Positions 8,415 to 57,775 of a stretch of DNA of 64,000 bases are shown piece after piece. How positions within the stretch are numbered: position 1 is the first letter of the stretch; every line of letters begins with the position of its first letter. The position numbers were made by a program, and so were the translations under genes. The stretch spans positions 32,001-96,000 of the IMG/VR virus record IMGVR_UViG_3300034684_000096. One strand, 5' to 3'. The notes under the pieces are model-generated. The model ran no database searches and had not been told where the DNA came from. It was given only the letters and a program-made list of their open reading frames with translations. This DNA comes from a virus.

Positions 8415-9587
8415 TTACTCTGACGCCTTGTAATTCCATACAGGCTTTAACACTTCTACTACCTCTACCGTAGGACCAATCTGACTCAGAATAGCTTCCG
8501 GTGCTTTATAAGCAAAAGGTGCTTCATCGATAGTCAATTCACTAATACAAGTAGTATGGATACCTTCCATACTTCTTTTAAAATCTTCTAGAGAAATATT
8601 CTCTTTTGCTTGTGTCCTTGACATTACCCTACCAGCACCATGAGGAGCAGAGTAATTCCATTCTTCATTGCCTTTTCCTATTCCTATAATCATTCCATCT
8701 CTCATGTTCAATGGGATAACTACTTTCTCTCCCTCATATGCACTAATTGCTCCTTTCCTCAATATCATACTCTTCTGCTCAATGTAATTATGGGTAGAGG
8801 AAATATATTCAGTGTAATTAGCGCCACCTAATTCATGTAGAATATTATTAATAATCATGCATCGATTGATATGAGCAAACGCCGTTGCTACTTCAACACA
8901 AAAGATGTATTCCAACATATCCCTACCAGTTAAGTACTCTAACCCATTGGCTATTTCAATCTTTGGTAATTCAGCAATCTTCTTCCCTAACTCATAGCTC
9001 GTGTACTGTTCTTTCAACTTAGCAATTGCATCATTTCTCTCTTTCTTATGGTTAGTACGCTTAGCAATGTTCTGGAAATGCTTAGCAATCTTACCCCCAA
9101 AACTACGGGAACCAGTATGAACACATAGCCACTGATTACCTTCTTTATCCACATCTACCTCAACATAATGATTTCCTCCACCGAGTGTACCTAAGCCCCT
9201 AACCGCTTCCTCTGGACTCTGGTTAGTCATCTTACACACTTTATGAAAGGACATAGGAAGCTTATATTCAAGAGAAGGTCTGTAACCTGCATCAAATATT
9301 TTTTCAATAATCTCGTCCAATACATTTACGTCAATATTCTTCTCCAACTTTACAGCCAACACACCACACCCAATGTCTGGTCCAATAAGATTAGGTACCA
9401 CTTTTTTCGTAATCTTCATAGTATACCCAATTACACAATTAGCTCCAGCATGTACATCACTCATAATTCTTGTATGTGCATTTTCACTGATAGGCAAATC
9501 AACAATATGCTGTATTTGTTCCTTAGCAGTATCTTCAATTTCAGATGCAAAAATTACTGCTGTATCATACTTTCCTTCTATAATCAT
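8415..9587 (-). CDS. rtcB: RtcB family RNA ligase
   Basis: MSDVHAG, DIGCG, GTLGGGNHYVE, HTGSR, THNY, RKGA, SAPHGAGRVMSR, DEAPFAYK. Confidence 0.96.
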   Translation of the reverse strand: MIIEGKYDTAVIFASEIEDTAKEQIQHIVDLPISENAHTRIMSDVHAGANCVIGYTMKITKKVVPNLIGPDIGCGVLAVKLEKNIDVNVLDEIIEKIFDAGYRPSLEYKLPMSFHKVCKMTNQSPEEAVRGLGTLGGGNHYVEVDVDKEGNQWLCVHTGSRSFGGKIAKHFQNIAKRTNHKKERNDAIAKLKEQYTSYELGKKIAELPKIEIANGLEYLTGRDMLEYIFCVEVATAFAHINRCMIINNILHELGGANYTEYISSTHNYIEQKSMILRKGAISAYEGEKVVIPLNMRDGMIIGIGKGNEEWNYSAPHGAGRVMSRTQAKENISLEDFKRSMEGIHTTCISELTIDEAPFAYKAPEAILSQIGPTVEVVEVLKPVWNYKASE

Positions 9588-10238: not shown

Positions 10239-10544
10239 TTAATCTACAAATTCCAAATCTTTTGCCGTCAGTCTTTCTACAGGAAGGCTACACTTTTCCC
10301 CCCAATAGATAGTTCCCGTACCATCTAATGCAATGTAGAGCTTATCTCCAGCAATCAATCTCACAGCATACACAACCATACCTTCATAGATACTATCATT
10401 TTGTATTACCCCATATTCTCCGATATTCAACTCATACATGGGAATAAACTCATTTTTGTCTTTACATCTAGCTCTCATATTACAACGTCTCCTTATTTCC
10501 AGCAAACCATAGCTGGTAACTTCTACTCTTAGCTTTAAAACCAA
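10239..10544 (-). CDS. Hypothetical protein, paralog of 48864-49106; true start probably at MRARC
   Basis: Shared MxxLxxGxxxxV...EG...DGTG...CxLxVxxL pattern. Confidence 0.65.
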   Translation of the reverse strand: MVLKLRVEVTSYGLLEIRRRCNMRARCKDKNEFIPMYELNIGEYGVIQNDSIYEGMVVYAVRLIAGDKLYIALDGTGTIYWGEKCSLPVERLTAKDLEFVD

Positions 10545-11586
10545 TACTCTGGTCAGTCATACTTCTCCACACCAAGCCTTCCCTAGGCACATCAGCCAAT
10601 ACACTTGTACCTTCGCAATCTTTCAATACTTCATCCAATGTATCAGGCAAGGTAACTCCTGTACCTACAAGCGGTACCATTAAAAGGTCGTGCTTAAAAC
10701 AGAATTGTTGCAACTCATTGAAATTAAATGCTTCCCCTGTATCAACATCTGTGACCTTATAGACAAACAACATAGGCATCTTCAACCCATAAATATTCTT
10801 CTGAACATCTGGACCGCAAACCTCACCCTGTATACAAAGATTACGTTTTTCGCTCCTAAGAATTCTCTCAAGTCCGTATATCTTACCGACTCTAGCCCAT
10901 AGGTTATTGTCGTTAGAATTACGAATTACATTGTGAGAAAACACTAGATACTTCCTTCGCTTTCCATAGAGTAGCCATGCTCCGGCACTTCCCTCACACT
11001 TTTCGGTCACATAAAAACGCTCATCTGGTCTCTGCTCTTTATATGCATTAAACAACTTCTCAATATTCGTTTCATCAGACTTCTGTACTGTTTCTGGGTA
11101 CTGCCTAATTTTCTTACCACGAATCTTTGCATACAGTTTTCTAAACCACTTGAACCGCATGAAAAACAGCATAATAGGGTTCTTATGTTTATTCTGAATC
11201 TGTTGCTTACCCTGTAGTTCCTCTGGGTCATATTTACGAATACCTAGTACCTCCGATACATCAGCACCCTCTTTAATTACAAAGTCTTCTGGAAGAATGT
11301 CCAAATTGAATGCAATGCCCGAAGAGTACATCCCACACATTTTCATGTTTCTAATTCTGAACCCATCATACAGTTTAGAATATGAATTTTTTCTTAAAAA
11401 CTCAAACTCTGGTTTAACAGGAAGCAAGGTGTCGTAAAAAATATAAACACACAAATCTCCTTCTTTAAACTGGTCTTTCTGTACAATAACCGGATAGTTT
11501 TCAATCGTTGCTTTCACAACCCTATCATACTTTGGAATAGGTTCAATCTTCTGAACCTTTGCTATAATTGCTAAATCTCTTGCCAT
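10480..11586 (-). CDS. ATP-dependent RNA ligase (DRB0094/Rnl5-like, N-terminal OB domain)
   Basis: N-terminal LAIIAKV..IEPIP..DR OB domain; KxxG motif TEKCEGS; QGEVCGP; REGLVWR; FKAKS. Confidence 0.9.
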   Translation of the reverse strand: MARDLAIIAKVQKIEPIPKYDRVVKATIENYPVIVQKDQFKEGDLCVYIFYDTLLPVKPEFEFLRKNSYSKLYDGFRIRNMKMCGMYSSGIAFNLDILPEDFVIKEGADVSEVLGIRKYDPEELQGKQQIQNKHKNPIMLFFMRFKWFRKLYAKIRGKKIRQYPETVQKSDETNIEKLFNAYKEQRPDERFYVTEKCEGSAGAWLLYGKRRKYLVFSHNVIRNSNDNNLWARVGKIYGLERILRSEKRNLCIQGEVCGPDVQKNIYGLKMPMLFVYKVTDVDTGEAFNFNELQQFCFKHDLLMVPLVGTGVTLPDTLDEVLKDCEGTSVLADVPREGLVWRSMTDQSIGFKAKSRSYQLWFAGNKETL

Positions 11587-20930: not shown

Positions 20931-21036
20931 AGTAACTCCTCTTTATGTATATATAATACCATGGATAAAAAAGCTTGTCAATACTATTTTAGAAAAAACT
21001 ATCTTTCCAGTAGTTTATAAATAAATTGTTCTGCGG

Positions 21037-21279
21037 TTAGCATGGTGCACTCCTTGGAAGGAAACAATCTTCAAGTATATACGTCTCGTGATTCAAATGA
21101 CGATTGATACCAAAAATATCATGAGCAAAATCAAACCACTCAAAATTTAGTAATTTCTGTAGGTCTAATGACTGCTTTTCCATACAGAAATGTAAATCCA
21201 TCATAGTTGTCAAGTAAGGCATCTGTAATTCTTTTTCAGCTCTTTTTGCAATCTTTTGCATTAAATCATCTTTATTCAT
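21037..21279 (-). CDS. DUF6874-like phage protein
   Basis: MDL...LDLQKLL...DFAHDIFGINRHLN...CFLPR; start set at MNKDD after the AGGA RBS. Confidence 0.75.
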   Translation of the reverse strand: MNKDDLMQKIAKRAEKELQMPYLTTMMDLHFCMEKQSLDLQKLLNFEWFDFAHDIFGINRHLNHETYILEDCFLPRSAPC

Positions 21280-21294
21280 GTTATTTTCCTTTAT

Positions 21295-21400
21295 TGGAGG
21301 TAAGGGGAATTGAACCCCTGTCTTATTAACTCTAAGCTTTCGTAATGTAGGCATTTATCGTCGCTTCATGCAAGTTAACAATCGAACCCTGTATACCCCC
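21295..21400 (-). ncRNA. ssrA: Miniature tmRNA-like RNA (106 nt)
   Basis: Acceptor GGGGGUA/UACCUCC+A with G3:U70; stemless D loop ending GGUUCGA; P2 UUGUUAACU/AGUUAAUAA; GAC then T arm AGGGG-UUCAAUU-CCCCU; internal AUAAAU-GCC...UAG frame. Confidence 0.8.
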
Positions 21401-21409
21401 GTAATTCAT

Positions 21410-21643
21410 TTATGCATTCTGCAAGGTTACAGAACCATCGTAATCTTCAAACATGCCTATAGCCCACATATTTGAATAATGCCCAACATCAATAGCACCC
21501 CCCTTATACACCACAACCACACCAGCACCACAAGTACCATTAGAGGAATTCATGAGCACAATGTTACCACTACTGGTTGACTTCATCAATTTTGGAAAAT
21601 CACTCACATGTTCTCCCTTATCCTTCGCAATTGTTTTAATCAT
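21410..21643 (-). CDS. Hypothetical protein
   Basis: FPKLMKS...GSVTLQN; AGGAG RBS. Confidence 0.75.
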   Translation of the reverse strand: MIKTIAKDKGEHVSDFPKLMKSTSSGNIVLMNSSNGTCGAGVVVVYKGGAIDVGHYSNMWAIGMFEDYDGSVTLQNA

Positions 21644-21701
21644 CTTTCTTTCTCCTTATATAGTAAGTATATACTATTTATTATTGTTTGTCAATAACTA
21701 T

Positions 21702-21932
21702 TTAATGCTTTTCTTTATAACCTTCTGATTCAAGGTTCCTAATCGCTTCATGCAATCTCTGCTTATTTCTAAACAACCGTATATCATATATAGGTGAACC
21801 ATCGTCATGTTTCTTCACCCCATCATGGAATGACAATGCATATTTACTTCTCCCAATATTATATTGTACATAATATTCTTTCACCAGTACCACTTCCTTC
21901 TTAAAAATTTTGGATAATAAATCTACCATCAT
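21702..21932 (-). CDS. Hypothetical protein; true start probably further downstream
   Basis: IGRSKYxxSFHDGVKKHxDGS. Confidence 0.7.
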   Translation of the reverse strand: MMVDLLSKIFKKEVVLVKEYYVQYNIGRSKYALSFHDGVKKHDDGSPIYDIRLFRNKQRLHEAIRNLESEGYKEKH

Positions 21933-22200: not shown

Positions 22201-22255
22201 TTGTTTTCCTTCTTATATATACAGTATATATTGTTATTTATTGTTTGTCAATAAA

Positions 22256-28454: not shown

Positions 28455-28490
28455 ATTGTACCATAGGGGTTGGTTGTTGTCAACCCCTAT
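28455..28490 (-). promoter_or_regulatory. Promoter-hairpin element, copy 2
   Basis: ATAGGGGTTGACA...CAACCCCTAT then GGTACAAT. Confidence 0.8.
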
Positions 28491-28503
28491 TTCAGAAGTT
28501 TTT

Positions 28504-28863
28504 CTAAATAATCGCTAGAGCATAAGGTACATAGTTTCCACAGTTGTCACTAATCTCTAGGTTTGCATACAACTTGGCCAAAGCGTCAGTATAAGAGGTT
28601 GCATCGTGCACAATCTTCTTGCTTGCTTCAGAAACATGCAGAAGGTTTAAAGCATTCAACAACGCTTGTTGATAGTCATATTTTTGCCACGACCGATTAA
28701 CCCATGAATACGTTCCACGCACCGCATGTACCATTTCATAATCAGAATCAAACAATGAGATAGTTACAAACTCATAAGAATATGCTTTGGTGGTCTTGTC
28801 TCTCGTAGTGAAAATAATTGTGTTAGCCATTTGTTTTCCCTCTTTATAATTCAAGTATACCAT
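28504..28863 (-). CDS. Hypothetical protein; true start probably at MANTI
   Basis: NRSWQKYDYQ motif; follows a promoter-hairpin element. Confidence 0.7.
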   Translation of the reverse strand: MVYLNYKEGKQMANTIIFTTRDKTTKAYSYEFVTISLFDSDYEMVHAVRGTYSWVNRSWQKYDYQQALLNALNLLHVSEASKKIVHDATSYTDALAKLYANLEISDNCGNYVPYALAII

Positions 28864-51863: not shown

Positions 51864-51947
51864 TACTCAGGGAGGGACTTGAACCCTCACATCCGAAGAC
51901 ACTAGCTCCTTAAACTAGCGTGTTTACCAATATTACACCACTTGGCA
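51864..51947 (-). tRNA. tRNA-Leu(AAG) with mismatched acceptor stem (possibly pseudo or split)
   Basis: Anticodon arm CTAGT-TTAAGGA-GCTAG; long variable arm; T arm GAGGG-TTCAAGT-CCCTC; acceptor TGCCAAG/CCTGAGT pairs poorly. Confidence 0.65.
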
Positions 51948-51950
51948 ATT

Positions 51951-52024
51951 TAGCTAGGGAGGAACTCGAATCCTCATTCATCGAATTTTAAGTCCGATTG
52001 CGTTACCATTTAGCATACCTAGCC
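51951..52024 (-). tRNA. tRNA-Leu(TAA) with short variable loop
   Basis: GGCTAGG/CCTAGCT; TCGGA-CTTAAAA-TTCGA; GAGGA-TTCGAGT-TCCTC. Confidence 0.8.
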
Positions 52025-52032
52025 ATATATCT

Positions 52033-52785
52033 TTATAACTTAATTCCGAGACTTTTAAGGTCTTCTTTTTCTAAAATTATAATCTTTCTATTAGGATTAT
52101 AATTTAAAACTGCTTCCATCTTTCTCCTATCATCAACTCTACCATCAGCAGTTTTCCAATAATATCCTTTAACCTCAACAAAAGAGTTAGAGTCTGGAAG
52201 ATAGAAATCAGGATAATAATAATGAGTATAATCATCTTCAAAAAGCTTATATTTTAAATGTTTTTTCTTAGTTTTTTCCCAATTAATGTTATTCTCATTT
52301 AAATATATAGCATATTTGTACTCCCAACTTCCTTGAAGAGAAACTTCTCTATTCATATAAGGACTAAATAGTTTATACCATTTTGTTCTTACACAACCAT
52401 TATTTCTTACTCCCATACTATTTGATATTTTTTGTTTTGTCTCTTTTGTATGCTTTCTTCCTAAAAAAGGTGGAGCAATCTTATTTTCTTTTATATTATT
52501 TGTATAGGTTTTTCCTTGTTTTATTCTACTTTCTTTTTCTTTTTCTTTATTATTCTCTCTCCACTCTTCTGAAGCCATTCCAAAAGGTCCTTTTCTATCT
52601 TTAAAAGAATAACTCTTAGGATATTCTTTATGAGCTTTTTTAACCCCTTTTGAATTTTTTTGCTTATTAATTGGACATTTAGAAGGTGAGCTTTCACAAA
52701 TTAATTTTCCATTTTTTAATCTATATTTTGCTACATTTCCACATCCATAATAACACAGTTCTTCTGTTTCTATTTTTTCTAGCAT
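52033..52785 (-). CDS. NUMOD3-containing PD-(D/E)XK homing-type endonuclease
   Basis: CYYGCG zinc motif; GRKHTKETKQKIS NUMOD3; GSWE...YYPDFYL...VEVKGY; AT-richer than neighbours. Confidence 0.85.
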   Translation of the reverse strand: MLEKIETEELCYYGCGNVAKYRLKNGKLICESSPSKCPINKQKNSKGVKKAHKEYPKSYSFKDRKGPFGMASEEWRENNKEKEKESRIKQGKTYTNNIKENKIAPPFLGRKHTKETKQKISNSMGVRNNGCVRTKWYKLFSPYMNREVSLQGSWEYKYAIYLNENNINWEKTKKKHLKYKLFEDDYTHYYYPDFYLPDSNSFVEVKGYYWKTADGRVDDRRKMEAVLNYNPNRKIIILEKEDLKSLGIKL

Positions 52786-52830
52786 ATTATAACCCTCTCA
52801 TTATTATAATAATTATAATATCTATAATAA

Positions 52831-52850
52831 GCCTATTCCACCACCTAAGC
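52831..52850 (-). pseudogene. Orphan 5' fragment of a tRNA-Leu
   Basis: GCTTAGG-TG-GTGGAATAGGC; GCTTAGG pairs with CCTGAGT at 51865-51871. Confidence 0.6.
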
Positions 52851-52858
52851 AAAATCAA

Positions 52859-52931
52859 TCAGAATGGTAGGACTCGAACCTACGACTTCCTGAATCCAAA
52901 TCAGGCACGCTACCAACTGCGCCACACTCTG
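52859..52931 (-). tRNA. tRNA-Pro(TGG)
   Basis: CAGAGTG/CATTCTG; CCTGA-TTTGGAT-TCAGG; canonical D and T arms. Confidence 0.95.
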
Positions 52932-52950
52932 AAGATGTGTTATACACACA

Positions 52951-54477
52951 TCATGTAATTTTTACAAACTCTGTGTTTAATGCAGTAATCACAGATGCAT
53001 ATCGCTCACTCTCTAAAACTGAGTTCATATATGCTACAGGGTCTGCACCACCCGTGACTGAACTAAATACAGAAGGAGACAGTCCAGAAACCAGTACCAC
53101 ATTGTCCTCATTATACCTAACAGGTATTGTATCATTCCTAGCCGATGCATTCCAGAACACAATCTTAGGCATCTCTACCCCAGCTTCTTTAAACGCTTGC
53201 TTAGCTCTATCAAAGTTACTTACTTTGTGAACCTCAGAGGAATCAAACTCCATATCGGTAACAAAGATAAGTGTATTAGGTACATCTTTTTTGTTTGCCA
53301 ATTGAGCAGACTGTAAGAAAATATCAAACACTGCATTGATGTTTGTGCTATACCCAACTCCTGTATCTTCAACAAAAGAAACTTTTGAGTAGATATCCTT
53401 TGTATCAGGTACTGAAATCAATTTAGGGTTAGAAGAAAACGTCATATACTTTCCAGCAAATGCCCCTGTATTCCTTTCTGCAAAATAGATAGCTAGAGCG
53501 ATAGACACAGACATCGGATGATAAGGAGTATCTCCCCATGTCATGGAGTTAGATACATCTGCTACCACAAGTGCTTTCATATCTTTGCCAACATAGTTAG
53601 GTAGATTATACCAAAGCATATTTGCATCTTCACGTGCATACTCTTTTTCTCGGACCTTTTCTACAATCTGATAAGGGTAAAGAGTAGAGGTATTTACTTT
53701 CTCAGTACCGCCCAATACTGCTTGTCGATACTCCGTGTACCTTTCCTCATCATGTCTTTTAAAAGCTTTCACATGTTTAAACATAGCTTGCGAAGGAACG
53801 TGAGGATAGTCAATAGAAGCCCACTCTTGAGCAGACATCTTCTGTTCAAGAATATTCAACACAGAACGCAATGTTGACAATGTTTTGCGATATTCTTTAT
53901 AAGAGTATCCTATTTTTCTAGCAAAGAATTGTGCTTTCTTTACAGTCTCTTTAGAAGATGTGTTAATAGAAGGCATCCACTTAGCTAACAGTGATACTGA
54001 ACCTTGTATCTCGTCAGTATATCTATCCCGTGCATTTACAACAGACAAATCAGCTCTCAACTGTGAAATAATAATGGAAAGAGCAAGTCCATCGTCGTGA
54101 GCGTATGCAATTTCTACTAAATCATCCCACCTACCATACTCCGCTACCAAATATAGTAGATTATGTATCTTACTTCTTCCAAAATCTGTCACAAAAATAG
54201 GGTAATATTTGTGAAAAACTACTCTGAAGAATCTACGTTCTCCTTGTCCACCTCGTACATCACGAAGATAGAAAAGGCATACCAGTGCTTTTACTTTATC
54301 TTCCGTATAAGCTTGGTAAAACAAAGAACAGATATCTTCGTCTGTTCTTGAACGGTATGCTCCCCCTAAGGCAAACATATCTAGTACTTTAACTAAACTG
54401 GAGCTATAGGCCATAGCTCCGTTCTCGGTTACTTTCTCCGTAAGTGTAGACTCCATTCTCTCAAAAAATGTATTCAT
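52951..54477 (-). CDS. DUF2828-family protein (TROVE/Ro60-like helical domain plus C-terminal vWA)
   Basis: TENGA, LRDVRGGQGERRFFR, EYGRWDDL, LAKWMPS, YPHVPSQAM, TLYPYQIV, MIDAS ADVSNSM, TDMEFD, IVFWN. Confidence 0.9.
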   Translation of the reverse strand: MNTFFERMESTLTEKVTENGAMAYSSSLVKVLDMFALGGAYRSRTDEDICSLFYQAYTEDKVKALVCLFYLRDVRGGQGERRFFRVVFHKYYPIFVTDFGRSKIHNLLYLVAEYGRWDDLVEIAYAHDDGLALSIIISQLRADLSVVNARDRYTDEIQGSVSLLAKWMPSINTSSKETVKKAQFFARKIGYSYKEYRKTLSTLRSVLNILEQKMSAQEWASIDYPHVPSQAMFKHVKAFKRHDEERYTEYRQAVLGGTEKVNTSTLYPYQIVEKVREKEYAREDANMLWYNLPNYVGKDMKALVVADVSNSMTWGDTPYHPMSVSIALAIYFAERNTGAFAGKYMTFSSNPKLISVPDTKDIYSKVSFVEDTGVGYSTNINAVFDIFLQSAQLANKKDVPNTLIFVTDMEFDSSEVHKVSNFDRAKQAFKEAGVEMPKIVFWNASARNDTIPVRYNEDNVVLVSGLSPSVFSSVTGGADPVAYMNSVLESERYASVITALNTEFVKIT

Positions 54478-54489
54478 TGTAAACTCCTC

Positions 54490-54685
54490 GACGCATTTTT
54501 TTATTACACCAAATAAATATTTCTGCTGTTTGCGTCAATAAAACCTAGATGCGAAATTGTTTTCTAAACCTATTATAGAATTAATTATTGCTTGCTGTAT
54601 GCATCTATTGTATTCATTTCAAAAAACATGACACATATAAAATTCAACTTAAAAGGTTGGTCTATAGATTTGCTGTTTGTGTCAT
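54490..54685 (-). ncRNA. Array of three ACAGCA-bulge hairpins in the DUF2828 leader
   Basis: Stems GACGCA/TGCGTC, TAGATGC/GCATCTA, ATGACACA/TGTGTCAT, each followed by an unpaired WACAGCA. Confidence 0.75.
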
Positions 54686-54698
54686 CCTTTATACTCAT

Positions 54699-54727
54699 AT
54701 ACTATCACATTTTCATCATCTTGTCAA
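54699..54727 (-). promoter_or_regulatory. Sigma70-type promoter driving the hairpin array and DUF2828
   Basis: TTGACA-17 bp-TAGTAT with extended TG. Confidence 0.75.
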
Positions 54728-54739
54728 GTACTTTTCACA

Positions 54740-54952
54740 TTATTCTTTACTTTTTTTGTCAAGTATTACACTTGCTATAATAAGAACAATTAGTAAGAAA
54801 ATACCTAAACAAGCAGGTATCCATATTGGTGCCAATACCCACAACCAACTCCATTCGATTACACCAACGAGTTTCAGTATTACAAAAGCCACCGCCAATA
54901 AATTGGCAAAACTTACCGCTTGTACAGTTACAGTACCATTTTCTTCTTGCAT
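54740..54952 (-). CDS. Small phage membrane protein
   Basis: FVILKLVGVIEWSWLWVLAPIWIP; AGGAG RBS. Confidence 0.8.
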   Translation of the reverse strand: MQEENGTVTVQAVSFANLLAVAFVILKLVGVIEWSWLWVLAPIWIPACLGIFLLIVLIIASVILDKKSKE

Positions 54953-55062
54953 TATCTACTCCTTACAGTCTACAAATGGTATTCCCATTGACACTTACCT
55001 TCTTTCTTATGTGTTTTATAGGTTCTACACACTATATTGATAAAATATAGAACCTATATTGT

Positions 55063-55144
55063 TGCCTAGGGAGGGACTCGAACCCTCACGTCTGGAGACA
55101 CTGGTTTCTAAGACCAGCACGTATACCCATTCCATCACCTAGGC
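55063..55144 (-). tRNA. tRNA-Leu(TAG)
   Basis: GCCTAGG/CCTAGGC; CTGGT-CTTAGAA-ACCAG; long variable arm. Confidence 0.95.
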
Positions 55145-55148
55145 GTTT

Positions 55149-55221
55149 CGTATAGCGTAGGGCTTGAACCTACAACCCTCTGATTAACAGTCAGAAGCTC
55201 TACCAATTGAGCTAGCTACAC
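55149..55221 (-). tRNA. tRNA-Asn(GTT)
   Basis: GTGTAGC/GCTATAC, G73; TCTGA-CTGTTAA-TCAGA. Confidence 0.93.
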
Positions 55222-55226
55222 ATGAG

Positions 55227-55310
55227 CGGAACAAGGAGGATTTGAACCTCAACGTTTTACCGTCAATCGGTTTAGCAAACCGTTGTACATCCCCTGTACT
55301 TCTCTGTTCC
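55227..55310 (-). tRNA. tRNA-Ser(GCT) with atypical D arm
   Basis: GGAACAG/TTGTTCC, G73; CGGT-TTGCTAA-ACCG; long variable arm. Confidence 0.75.
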
Positions 55311-55313
55311 TCC

Positions 55314-55418
55314 TAATTAAGTACCTCTTACCGTTCTATGCCTCTGAACTACTGCCCCTGCCTCTCGGAGTGACCTTCTGGATTTGAACCAGTGTTTGTA
55401 ATCTACAGTACTTAATTA
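55314..55418 (-). ncRNA. Circularly permuted tRNA-like RNA (YrlA/Y-RNA-like topology)
   Basis: 11-bp terminal stem TAATTAAGTAC/GTACTTAATTA; T arm CTGG-TTCAAAT-CCAG precedes D arm TA-GTTC-AGAGGCATA-GAAC. Confidence 0.65.
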
Positions 55419-55423
55419 TTTTA

Positions 55424-55493
55424 TAGCTAAGGGAGGACTCGAACCTCTACGCAGTCATGCTTATGAGACAGACCGGCAACCTTGCACTCAGCG
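55424..55493 (-). tRNA. Degenerate tRNA with CAT anticodon and truncated D arm
   Basis: CGCTGAG/CTTAGCT with 1:72 mismatch; loop CTCATAA; T arm GAGG-TTCGAGT-CCTC. Confidence 0.6.
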
Positions 55494-55633
55494 ATGAGCG
55501 GGCAGTTTTTCAATTTATCTATGGCTACCCCGCATTCTCCACAGTTTAGTCAGGAGCTACCCGACCTACTCTAATCTGTACGGACTTTTCTTTTACGATG
55601 CAGTCCTACATCATTATGCTCGTTACAGCGGAA

Positions 55634-55705
55634 AGCCAGCAGAAGGATTTGAACCTCCACCAAACAGTGTACAAGGCTGTTATCATGCCATTAGACCATG
55701 CTGGC
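55634..55705 (-). tRNA. tRNA-Thr(TGT)
   Basis: GCCAGCA/TGCTGGC, U73; loop CTTGTAC; one anticodon-stem mismatch. Confidence 0.85.
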
Positions 55706-55770
55706 AAAATGTAGTGGGTTTCCTCTACTGCGCTAGTAGAAGCATAAACAACTTCACCCACAAAGCATTT

Positions 55771-55895
55771 TAGGACTGACAGGATTTGATACCTGCACGA
55801 ATGGGTTGAGTGACCTTGCGTTTCATCCTACCCCTATGTAGGGTCGCACCATTCTCCAGAAGTCTTGCTGTAGCGTCTACTTCCGCCACAGTCCT
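55771..55895 (-). ncRNA. 125-nt tRNA-like RNA with oversized branched variable arm
   Basis: Perfect acceptor AGGACTG/CAGTCCT; D arm GCGGAAGTAGACGC; T arm GCAGG-TATCAAAT-CCTGT; insert closed by GAATGG/CCATTC. Confidence 0.7.
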
Positions 55896-56055
55896 CCGCT
55901 CTTCTATGGTGAGCATTCCCGTCGTTCTCCGAAAAGATACGATGCGATTATCGAATTGAGTAACCCACTGATTTGAGGAATTCATTACTGAATCTAGCCT
56001 TAGTAGGTATTGTTAAATATACTATAGCATATTTTTAATCTTTTGTCAAGTCCTT

Positions 56056-56277
56056 TTAAGAAATATCTTCAACTTCTAATCCATTTTCTCTCAACACTTC
56101 ATGAAAATAGTGCCAAAGCTCCTCTTTATTCTTTGATGGCTCTGGTCCGTGTTTATACCAGCTATATAACTCAGAGTATATATCTGATAAAGCACCCATA
56201 AATTTCTCCGCCTTAGCACCAACCCTTTCAAATTGACATAAATCATAATCCGTTAGCTCTATAGTGACTTTTTTCAT
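56056..56277 (-). CDS. Hypothetical protein
   Basis: AGGAG RBS. Confidence 0.7.
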   Translation of the reverse strand: MKKVTIELTDYDLCQFERVGAKAEKFMGALSDIYSELYSWYKHGPEPSKNKEELWHYFHEVLRENGLEVEDIS

Positions 56278-56306
56278 AGTATATACTCCTACTTATTTTT
56301 CTAGGA

Positions 56307-56341
56307 TTGGCTAGGTAGGCTTCGAACCTACAAATGCCCTG
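56307..56341 (-). pseudogene. Orphan 3' part of a tRNA (variable loop, T arm, acceptor strand)
   Basis: CAGGG-CATTT-GTAGG-TTCGAAG-CCTAC-CTAGCCA; partner TGGCTAG at 57603-57609. Confidence 0.7.
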
Positions 56342-56342
56342 T

Positions 56343-57581
56343 TTATAGTATCTCATTCCCATATAAGGAATTAGTAGACACTTCAAGGAAACTGCCTTGA
56401 GGATTATAAACTAATCTTCTTGGTCTTACAGTTTCTCCATGCCTGTACTCGTCGTACTCCGACGATTTTAAAAATTCATTCTCAATATTGATTGAGGCAT
56501 TCAAATCTCTGTCAATTTCAAAACCACAATCACATTTATACACTCTATCAGAAAGATTTAAATCTTTATTTACTTTCCCACAACTAGAACAAGTCTTTGA
56601 ACTAGGAAAGAATCTATCAACTTTGTATACTGTTGTATTGTACTGTTTGGCTTTTTGTTCCAATCTAATAACAAATGAACTCCAATTAATATTCTGAATA
56701 CTGTGGCTCAACTTTCTGTTTTTCTTCATACCAGAAACATTTAAATCTTCAAGTACTATAGCTTGGTTTTCACTACATAACTTGTTGGATAAATGCCACT
56801 GAAAATGATTAAGATAATTTTGCCTATATTCATACAACATATTCAATCGTCGTTTACAAGCATACCATCTATTGGAACCTTTTACTTTTCTTGATAGATG
56901 TTTTTGTTGTTTTCTAATAGTACTATCTAATCCTGCTATCTTGTCTTTTATACCATAAATAAAATCTCCGTTTGAACAAACTGCAAATTCTTTTAATCCT
57001 AAATCAACACCAACTATATTATCAGAAACCCTTTTACGCTTTTCGATTTGTTCCTTTTCTACCAATATAGATGCGTAATATTTTCCTGATTTAGCCTTAG
57101 ATACTGTAACGTTTTTTATAATACCTGAAAAATCTCCTGATAACCCTCTTATTTTTACTTTCCCAAGCTTTAAAAGAACTATTCTTGTATTCTCTTCTGT
57201 TAATCTTGGTAATTCTTTAATGATGCATTCTCTATAAGAATCATTACATTTTCCTTTCTTTTTAAACTTCGGGAAACCCGGTTTATGCCCTTGCTTTACC
57301 CTTCTAAAGAAGTTAGTGTATGCCTTATCCAAATTAAGTTGACTTTGGTTGAGTGCACTAGCAGATACCTCTTTCAACCAAGAAAATTCTTTTCTAAGAT
57401 TTTTAATAGTAGGATACTTATAGGTTTTTAACATTTCTTTATTGTCCTTATATTTTTCATAAAAAGAAATTCTATCGGCCAAAGAATAGTTATACACATA
57501 TCTACAACAGCCTATTGTTTTATTAATAAGTTCTGCTTGTTGTTTTGTTGGGTATAGTCTTACTTTGTATGCTTTGTACAT
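56343..57581 (-). mobile_element. tnpB: Solo TnpB RNA-guided endonuclease (IS200/IS605/IS607 family), no transposase nearby
   Basis: KAYKVRLYPT HTH; RuvC GVDLG, LEDL, DRDLNA; zinc finger CSSC...CDC. Confidence 0.93.
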
Positions 57582-57613
57582 TAAATAACCTCTTTGTTTC
57601 CACTAGCCAGTTA

Positions 57614-57697
57614 CGGAAGATGAGGGACTCGAACCCCCAAGGCTTTTACACCCAGCAATTTTCAAGACTGCCTGTTTACCAATTAACATAATCTTCC
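57614..57697 (-). tRNA. tRNA-Ser(TGA)
   Basis: GGAAGAT/ATCTTCC, G73; GCAGT-CTTGAAA-ATTGC; long variable arm. Confidence 0.95.
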
Positions 57698-57703
57698 TTA
57701 CCT

Positions 57704-57775
57704 CAGCCACAGGAGGAATTGAACCTCCAATAACAGAATCAAAATCTGTTGTGTTTCCAATTACACTATATGGCT
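57704..57775 (-). tRNA. tRNA-Gln(TTG)
   Basis: AGCCATA/TGTGGCT, G73; ACAGA-TTTTGAT-TCTGT. Confidence 0.93.

Follow-up and report, generated by a model that had tools for sequence, protein, structure and literature searches.

The closest described counterpart of the RNA gene presented here is carried by Mycobacterium phage DS6A. In the tmRNA database paper of 2025, nine unique sequences of a 'standard, no CDS' form are reported, and phage DS6A is named as an earlier example (PMC11915505). The DS6A element (JN698994.1, about positions 28478 to 28560) has a length of 83 nt and reaches 43.2 bits with the Rfam model RF00023, to which it was aligned from end to end. Such a molecule, consisting of the tRNA-like domain only (TLD-only), is described as a strong inhibitor of tmRNA in E. 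coli, chargeable or not (PMC4131195, citing Mao et al. 2009), and SmpB titration is suggested in PMC4131195 as perhaps being the cause; inhibition of tmRNA in E. coli by the DS6A-like molecule is also stated in PMC11915505.

Further CDS-less tmRNAs originate from organelles, namely the mitochondria of jakobids and oomycetes (RF02544) and the plastids of Mallomonadaceae, the latter with forms of about 65 bp. They have a tRNA-like domain without a tag frame in common with the element of this study and, according to PMC11915505, are thought still to act with SmpB. However, they are mostly permuted two-piece organelle genes, represent independent reductions and are not phage genes. Very short natural tags of two amino acids are reported for Fermentibacterota tmRNAs, which are listed apart from the groups without a tag CDS (PMC11915505) and bear on the short-frame alternatives weighed below. 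Compared to the one-piece bacterial tmRNA (SsrA, RF00023), the mini-tmRNA described here features the tRNA-like domain, helix P2 and the alanine identity elements and passes the Rfam cut-off, whereas pseudoknots and a conserved tag frame are missing, the length is about one third, and the program ARAGORN does not call it. An Ala-Ala end is typical of degradation tags; unlike the tmRNA of MAG G001 (372 nt, tag AKKEDNVSYDAEYALAA), the mini-tmRNA does not encode a hydrophobic Ala-Ala tag end.

Location and Structure of the Mini-tmRNA Gene

The DNA analyzed, referred to as the window, is a stretch of 64,000 nt belonging to a 120-kb IMG/VR virus record (85% complete according to CheckV; 35% G+C). 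A mini-tmRNA gene of 106 nt was located on its minus strand at positions 21295–21400, and its delimitation is supported by an RF00023 score of 52.1 bits and by covariation among five sequences. All features described in this section are on the minus strand, the RNA position being 21401 minus the window coordinate. In a preliminary description, made from the sequence without database searches, the acceptor GGGGGUA with the G3:U70 pair, a stemless D loop, helix P2, and GAC plus the T arm had been recognized, and all of these parts are indeed present in the sequence.

The acceptor is built from the 5′ strand GGGGGUA containing G3 (RNA 1–7; 21394–21400) and the 3′ strand UACCUCC (RNA 99–105), the latter being followed by the discriminator A106 (together 21295–21302); pairing of positions 1–7 with 99–105 is evident from sequence and covariation. 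The D-loop analogue UAUACAGGGUUCGA (RNA 8–19; 21382–21393) is stemless and unpaired, ends with GGGUUCGA and matches the Rfam consensus GGaUUCGA, its GG and UUCGA being unchanged in five out of five subfamily sequences. Helix P2a consists of ten pairs between RNA 20–29 (21372–21381) and RNA 69–78 (21323–21332), with 100% of the pair cells paired and six pairs changed on both sides, that is, with covariation. It is followed by an asymmetric junction loop, GCAUG (RNA 30–34; 21367–21371), for which the family pattern is G-N-N-U-R, and by helix P2b, in which AAGC (RNA 35–38; 21363–21366) pairs with GCUU (RNA 64–67, with A68 at 21333–21337); P2b is paired in all subfamily sequences and reads AAGAC/GUCUU in the relative L014. 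The A-rich apical region (RNA 39–63; 21338–21362) comprises 25 nt in four of the five subfamily sequences and 24 nt in L155, and features the conserved motifs ACGA...GCC...CGAA. On the 3′ side, the GAC linker (RNA 79–81; 21320–21322), corresponding to the Rfam consensus GGAC, is unchanged in all five sequences and precedes the T arm AGGGG-UUCAAUU-CCCCU (RNA 82–98; 21303–21319), three of whose five pairs show compensatory change. On the plus strand, a 'terminator-like' match coincides with the T-arm hairpin.

Thus, the parts of a tmRNA tRNA-like domain were found together, namely a 7-bp acceptor with G3:U70 and A73, a stemless GGnUUCGA, GAC, and a T arm of the type GGUUCRAnUCC. A D stem and an anticodon arm of a tRNA or tRNA-Ala (RF00005) were called at the element neither by ARAGORN nor by Rfam. 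The 3′ end does not encode CCA, the discriminator being followed by AUA. Between the two P2a strands lie only about 40 nt, leaving no room for pseudoknots; accordingly, the folds obtained show nested helices only, and neither PK1–PK4 nor a substitute for PK1 was supported. The single-sequence fold of the 106-nt element (−27.6 kcal/mol, z −1.94) is mildly beyond shuffles, 5 of 200 shuffled sequences being equal or better. Two further interpretations of the loops were rejected: by eye, no conserved 7-nt loop with U33 and purine 37 is common to the five sequences, such as an anticodon-loop mimic at the apex would have, and the order of G and A residues in the junction loop seems unlike the kink-turn consensus.

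Searches with Rfam and ARAGORN had been suggested as checks in the preliminary description, and they diverged. With RF00023, the element was detected at 52.1 bits, above the gathering score of 47 (E-value 1.2e-17 over the whole window), the alignment spanning all 374 model positions, with an insert of only 36 nt where the model has about 300 interior positions, so that the score comes from the tRNA-like domain and P2 alone. ARAGORN called eight tRNA genes in the window and did not call the mini-tmRNA.

The element combines a non-permuted order, a complete tRNA-like domain and a closed P2 with the absence of a tag CDS. As a tRNA-like domain without pseudoknots or a conserved message, it was therefore placed in the rare 'standard, no CDS' form. 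Similar to the DS6A element, it is phage-borne, with an acceptor containing G3:U70, a stemless D loop, a T arm and a closed P2; both lack the entire region of message and pseudoknots, Rfam aligns the two ends and skips the interior, and CCA is not encoded (as read for DS6A from the RF00023 alignment). In contrast, the window's element has 106 nt with a skipped interior of 36 nt and a G+C content of 0.42, compared to 83 nt, 20 nt and 0.69 for DS6A, and there is no recognizable sequence similarity beyond the tRNA-like domain. Moreover, the window's subfamily adds the conserved junction loop, helix P2b and the A-rich cap. The element is thus a member of a known, rare kind of CDS-less TLD-only tmRNA, within a subfamily possessing its own conserved interior.

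Genomic Setting

The mini-tmRNA gene is located between two small protein-coding genes of the same strand. Upstream, an ORF of 77 aa (21410–21643, minus; PHROG 34898, unknown function) ends with its stop 9 nt before RNA position 1, and downstream an 80-aa gene (21037–21279, minus) starts with an ATG 15 nt after the discriminator, with AAAGGA in between. Domain DUF6874 covers residues 3–78 of the downstream protein, whose relatives show 57–72% identity. A longer ORF running through the 3′ half of the RNA (21037–21354) was rejected as protein-coding, since gene callers and homologues agree on 80 aa from the ATG at 21279; tblastn similarity of this ORF to other loci is confined to 18 codons over the T arm. 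A promoter-like TTGACA-17-TATACT (21666–21694, minus; 11 out of 12 consensus matches) was identified 266 nt upstream of the element and is the probable start of the transcript carrying the mini-tmRNA; it is one of three near-consensus sites on the minus strand within 2 kb, and the total count of promoter-like sites is not above that in shuffles.

The phage appears distant from cultured ones. Megablast of 5 kb around the element yielded no match among cultured phages, and the Dda-like helicase of the record is at most about 32% identical to that of any cultured phage. No relative of the 368-aa neighbor of the element was found in viral contigs. Distant blastn searches with the element itself returned only T-arm matches of 24–34 nt; among these, the match in Synechococcus phage S-CAM1 was dismissed as a mini form, being a full permuted tmRNA of the cyanobacterial type. 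Nine tRNA genes, RtcB and an RNA ligase are encoded by the phage, and none of the nine tRNA genes contains an encoded CCA. A CCA-adding enzyme of family PF01743 was not found in the record, and there was no match to the integrase family PF00589. The tmRNA of MAG G001 was considered as the donor of the element and rejected, having only the generic tRNA-like domain in common with it; the binning of the phage-like contig into this MAG is itself doubtful.

Conservation of the Subfamily

Exact-pattern scans revealed four further distinct sequences with an interior of the window's type and a length of about 105 nt, designated L014, L143, L139 and L155. L014 is an IMG/VR contig also encoding an endolysin and a methyltransferase, and the element of L143 recurs without change in L146, a phage-like contig assigned to a Spirochaetia MAG by binning. 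Within IMG/VR, only L014 and L155 share the window's interior. The subfamily thus comprises only five distinct sequences, effectively about four lineages.

In the alignment of the window, L143, L139, L014 and L155 (A3), the structure formed by the acceptor, P2a, P2b and the T arm (26 pairs) was scored. In total, 98.5% of the 130 pair cells are paired, and 12 out of 26 pairs show changes on both sides. These values were reached by 0 of 500 shuffles, a control that overstates significance for five related sequences. A second control, which does not share this weakness, used structures slid by one to three columns on the same alignment; here, 39–59% of the cells were paired, with at most one pair changed on both sides. 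Pairs 5, 6 and 7 of the acceptor covary, and G3:U70 is kept in all five sequences. For L155 this pair was not imposed by the search, as the pattern used left the acceptor free.

A variant of the element from a near-identical strain, found in a sequencing run of another study (X12), differs by four changes in 106 nt (RNA A11G, G34A, A53U and C54U), all of them at positions that are unpaired in the four scored helices. The aligned piece as a whole (21271–21797) contains 44 mismatches and 12 gaps, and the mini-tmRNA is kept though the downstream gene has been replaced by 371 unrelated letters. In a comparison covering the window, L146/L143, L139 and L014, these loci had no protein-coding neighbor in common; the RNA thus behaves like a conserved module that is independent of its gene neighborhood. 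Judged by the alignment and its controls, the mini-tmRNA is a real conserved phage gene, with a tRNA-like domain and P2 far beyond chance; by the same measure, an intact tRNA-like domain is maintained by selection, and G3:U70 looks selected.

Interior of the RNA and the Proposed Tag Frame

The preliminary description had read, in an interior of about 40 nt, the string AUAAAU-GCC-UAC-AUU-ACG-AAA-GCU-UAG as a resume signal followed by a six-codon tag frame and a stop. The string itself is present (RNA 43–69), GCC-UAC-AUU-ACG-AAA falling into the apical region and GCU-UAG into the 3′ strand of P2b. The claim that a resume signal and tag are kept, for which loss of the frame among homologues had been named as the refuting outcome, did not hold, as the homologues conserve neither the GCC frame nor its stop. 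Starting from the homologous GCC, L139 encodes Ala and then a stop, L143 and L014 stay open up to the 3′ end of the RNA, and L155 shows no in-frame stop within the stretch read by eye. The sequence CUUAG, which supplies the final sense codon together with the stop, is unchanged in all five members, because it represents the 3′ strand of P2b pairing with AAG, plus the junction. The best-conserved motif of the interior, AUGCCUA, falls into two different frames, AAU-GCC-UAC in the window and AUG-CCU-ACA in L143 and L139, as a consequence of two compensating 1-nt indels.

When the same frame is begun at G37, 12 nt before the GCC, it stays open up to a stop codon in each of the five sequences. Its first codons are GCG, GCA, GCA, GAC and GCG, and its peptides, in the same order ATINAYITKA, ATKMPTHANA, ATKMPKHTNA, DNEKPK and AT (10, 10, 10, 6 and 2 codons), are unrelated; none of them has an Ala-Ala end. 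In addition, the junction loop reads G-N-N followed by U-R-A in the five sequences and in the X12 variant, a possible codon plus stop. Frames of this kind arise readily: when the 40-nt interior was shuffled with its composition preserved, GCN with at least five sense codons and an in-frame stop appeared in 37% of the cases, and after shuffling of the apical 25 nt the 10-codon G37 frame was still open in 54%. Among the unique mini-tmRNAs of at least 85 nt from the scans (n = 23), seven are without any stop-closed GCN frame, and nine have one of at least six codons. By these counts, the GCC and G37 tag frames and the codon–stop of the junction loop are not beyond chance. As far as the comparison of the five sequences goes, the interior is conserved as an RNA and not as a peptide, and the element is a mini-tmRNA without a conserved tag message.

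Proposed Function and Alternative Explanations

We consider it moderately probable that the element is a working gene of the phage whose product, a CDS-less, TLD-only tmRNA, interferes with tmRNA-based rescue and tagging in the host. Keeping the alanine-accepting end without a conserved tag message, the mini-tmRNA most likely interferes with the rescue-and-destroy system of the host rather than itself tagging proteins. According to this model, an early polycistronic transcript would be cut by host RNase P at the 5′ side and by a 3′ tRNA-processing nuclease to release the mini-tmRNA, to which host enzymes would add CCA and alanine. The RNA would then bind SmpB (and EF-Tu) of the host and compete with the full-length host tmRNA for SmpB and stalled ribosomes. 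No SmpB was found in the 120-kb record, which is 85% complete, and hence a host SmpB would be needed as the partner. The phage would probably profit in that nascent chains whose messages are broken or cleaved escape the host degradation tag. Competing with host tmRNA would suit a phage equipped with nine tRNA genes, RtcB and an RNA ligase, as part of a fight over the translation apparatus. The apparent selection on G3:U70 argues that plain soaking up of SmpB is not the whole story, and so does the conservation of the junction loop, P2b and cap motifs, none of which would be required of a plain SmpB sponge. Since inhibition is described as independent of chargeability (PMC4131195), the seemingly selected G3:U70 hints that the RNA enters the ribosome and does more than titrate SmpB. 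Of the two readings left side by side in the preliminary description, the miniature tmRNA acting as an SmpB/AlaRS decoy fits the evidence, given the intact tRNA-like domain, the lack of pseudoknots and of a conserved message, and the DS6A precedent, whereas the retained resume signal and six-codon tag frame have to be given up.

That the RNA is instead a minimal true tmRNA, on which the ribosome resumes at G37 (GCG, GCA or GAC) and not at GCC49 to add a short non-degron tag of 2–10 codons, so that rescue would not lead to proteolysis, is unlikely, but several observations agree with it. The G37 frame is open and stop-closed in all five sequences and has ten codons in three of them, the most frequent natural tag length (PMC11915505); the compensating 1-nt indels leave this length unchanged from the window to L143/L139, the A-rich interior shows only weak structure, and natural tags of two amino acids are reported in PMC11915505. 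Against this stand the shuffle frequencies of 54% and 37%, the unrelated peptides of uneven length without an Ala-Ala end, the occurrence of AUGCCUA in two frames, and the set of 23 longer mini-tmRNAs, in which seven are without a stop-closed GCN frame and only nine have one of at least six codons. Furthermore, the resume and stop codons sit in the two strands of helix P2b, neither pseudoknot 1 nor a substitute precedes the resume site, and, from known ribosome structures, a 40-nt loop would presumably be too short for the mRNA channel with P2 intact. An even shorter message, in which G30-N-N-U33-R-A35 of the junction loop (GCA-UGA in the window) serves as resume codon and stop and one or two residues are added, is highly unlikely. 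Its appeal lies in the series GCA-UGA (window), GCC-UGA (L143), GCU-UAA (L014) and GUU-UGA (L139 and L155), in which the middle two loop bases vary while G and U-R-A stay, and in the X12 variant, which turns UGA into UAA. However, GUU in two of the five is not an alanine codon, only five sequences are available, and only 10 nt separate the site from the tRNA-like domain, a single-stranded leader being absent. A structured junction would explain the pattern equally well, as A35 also takes part in the first P2b pair and P2a directly adjoins the loop. The broader idea that the subfamily of about 105 nt represents the smallest natural RNA doing complete trans-translation, with alanine charging and resumption at G37 or G30-N-N over 1–10 codons, is quite doubtful for us. 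If true, the phage would rescue ribosomes on cleaved messages while its products are spared the host degradation tag, and message switching would be shown to work without pseudoknots and without a long ring of RNA encircling the head of the 30S subunit.

Explanations apart from ribosome rescue were also weighed. It is quite unlikely that the RNA is a decoy for host defense or RNA-damage factors recognizing the tRNA-like domain of tmRNA, such as tmRNA-cutting nucleases or restriction systems with SmpB-like domains. CoCoNuT systems are described as carrying SmpB-like domains predicted to bind tmRNA, and tmRNA is named as the most frequent bacterial target of RtcB (both PMC11090510); the phage itself encodes RtcB and an RNA ligase. 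However, a direct link is lacking, RtcB being encoded 12 kb from the mini-tmRNA, and a conserved G3:U70 would be superfluous for this role. A role as tRNA-like punctuation, where an RNase P or 3′-nuclease site separates the flanking small ORFs or stabilizes mRNA ends, appears very unlikely, although the tight spacing of 9 nt after an ORF stop and 15 nt before the next start, in an apparent early operon, would match it, as would the same layout in L155 with an ATG 12 nt downstream. For punctuation any tRNA-like fold suffices, but here the tmRNA D-loop motif, GAC, G3:U70 and interior motifs are conserved, and the flanking genes are not the same in the four loci compared (window, L146/L143, L139 and L014). 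Scarcely credible is an ssrA fragment or attP core left behind when a phage inserted itself into the tmRNA gene of a host. As stated in the Melnitz paper (PMC9004378), ssrA is a frequent integration site of phages, which then carry the 3′ end of the gene, but in this case both halves are present and covary, the record is without an integrase, five unrelated contexts contain the same RNA, and the tmRNA of MAG G001, the sole host candidate encountered, bears no special resemblance to it. Interference with host tmRNA remains the reading we prefer. With its conserved interior module, the subfamily offers a natural test of the minimal tmRNA for each step, namely SmpB binding, A-site entry and message switching.

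Occurrence of Mini-tmRNAs in Viral Datasets

To evaluate how common such RNAs are, IMG/VR was scanned with strict patterns of the form GGGG...GGNUUCGA...GGUUCRANUCC...CCUCCA. As the patterns fix GGGG and CCUCCA, the G3:U70 pair is imposed in these scans. For gaps of 15–44, 45–75 and 76–106 nt between UUCGA and the T arm, 112, 19 and 4 loci were obtained, respectively (135 loci). Together with the window, these represent 136 elements with 93 unique sequences. They share the tRNA-like domain and a closed P2, and a full 7-bp acceptor and 5-bp T stem were found in 134 of them. In the literature searched, no phage mini-tmRNA family beyond DS6A was described; the supplementary tables of PMC11915505, which list 'standard, no CDS' and phage sequences, may already include relatives of this subfamily. 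By these pattern matches, phage mini-tmRNAs seem far commoner than the single published phage case suggests.

Standard annotation misses these genes. ARAGORN called none of the 136 elements, and of the six elements scored with Rfam, comprising the five subfamily members and DS6A, three pass the cut-off and three fail. Within the subfamily, L155 (53.7 bits) and L143 (50.6 bits) pass as the window does, whereas L014 (44.6 bits) and L139 (38.3 bits) are missed at the curated cut-off, since they score below 47 bits. If phage mini-tmRNAs block or redirect trans-translation, they would constitute a compact, RNA-only counter-measure against a near-universal bacterial quality control, and they could be put to use in the laboratory for the specific inhibition of trans-translation.

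The lengths of the 136 elements cluster at 64–65 nt (27 elements), 79–80 nt (47) and 102–108 nt (11). Most of the IMG/VR mini-tmRNAs belong to the 64–65-nt or 79–80-nt forms, whose interiors are unrelated to that of the window. CCA is encoded in 69 of the 136 elements.

Genomic Surroundings of the mini-tmRNA

The mini-tmRNA was retained in the close strain represented by another study's sequencing run (X12), while the neighbouring DUF6874 gene, which encodes 80 amino acids, was absent there: 371 unrelated letters replace the 289 letters carrying this gene (window 20981-21271). This replacement is a gene swap immediately adjoining the mini-tmRNA.

In this part of the window, a run of small ORFs is interspersed with three near-consensus (11/12) TTGACA-17-TATA(C/T)T sites on the minus strand (22223-22251, 21666-21694, and 20953-20981), which are probably early promoters. 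The total number of promoter-like sites showed no excess over shuffles.

Related tmRNA Elements in Other Sequences

The subfamily member on contig L139 (946-1050) features U instead of G at RNA position 1, resulting in a U1/C72 mismatch in the acceptor, and this represents either a contig error or a different mature 5' end. On two further contigs, a mini-tmRNA of approximately 70 nt follows a tRNA-like T arm and acceptor (L141 2880-2978 and L142 1262-1360), with only a few bases separating the end of the latter from the start of the former; therefore, tRNA arrays can house mini-tmRNAs.

A permuted cyanobacterial-type tmRNA (RF01851, 128 bits) was identified in Synechococcus phage S-CAM1, where it adjoins tRNA-Arg and tRNA-Val (stretch L156 354-622, corresponding to HQ634177.1 ~108674-108942). 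No annotated feature in HQ634177.1 covers this element.

RNA Repair Genes and the tRNA Gene Cluster

The window encodes RtcB (8415-9587) and an RNA ligase with PF09414 and a PHA02142 OB domain (10480-11586), both on the minus strand and together constituting a tRNA-repair set. In one publication, tmRNA is described as the most frequent target of bacterial RtcB (PMC11090510).

The tRNA cluster (51864-57775, minus strand) comprises eight genes called by ARAGORN (Leu-taa, Pro, Leu-tag, Asn, Ser-gct, Thr, Ser-tga, and Gln) and a ninth, tRNA-like element (51864-51946) represented only by a weak Rfam match of 33.4 bits; CCA is encoded in none of the nine. The cluster also harbours, on the same strand, an IS605 OrfB/TnpB-like gene (56343-57581; PF01385, PF07282, and PF12323; PHROG 506, transposase). 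Moreover, tRNA genes lie on either side of a minus-strand gene (52951-54477) for a 508-aa protein that carries DUF2828 and DUF7788, matches vWA weakly, and is assigned to PHROG 850, which is labelled 'RNA-binding protein'.
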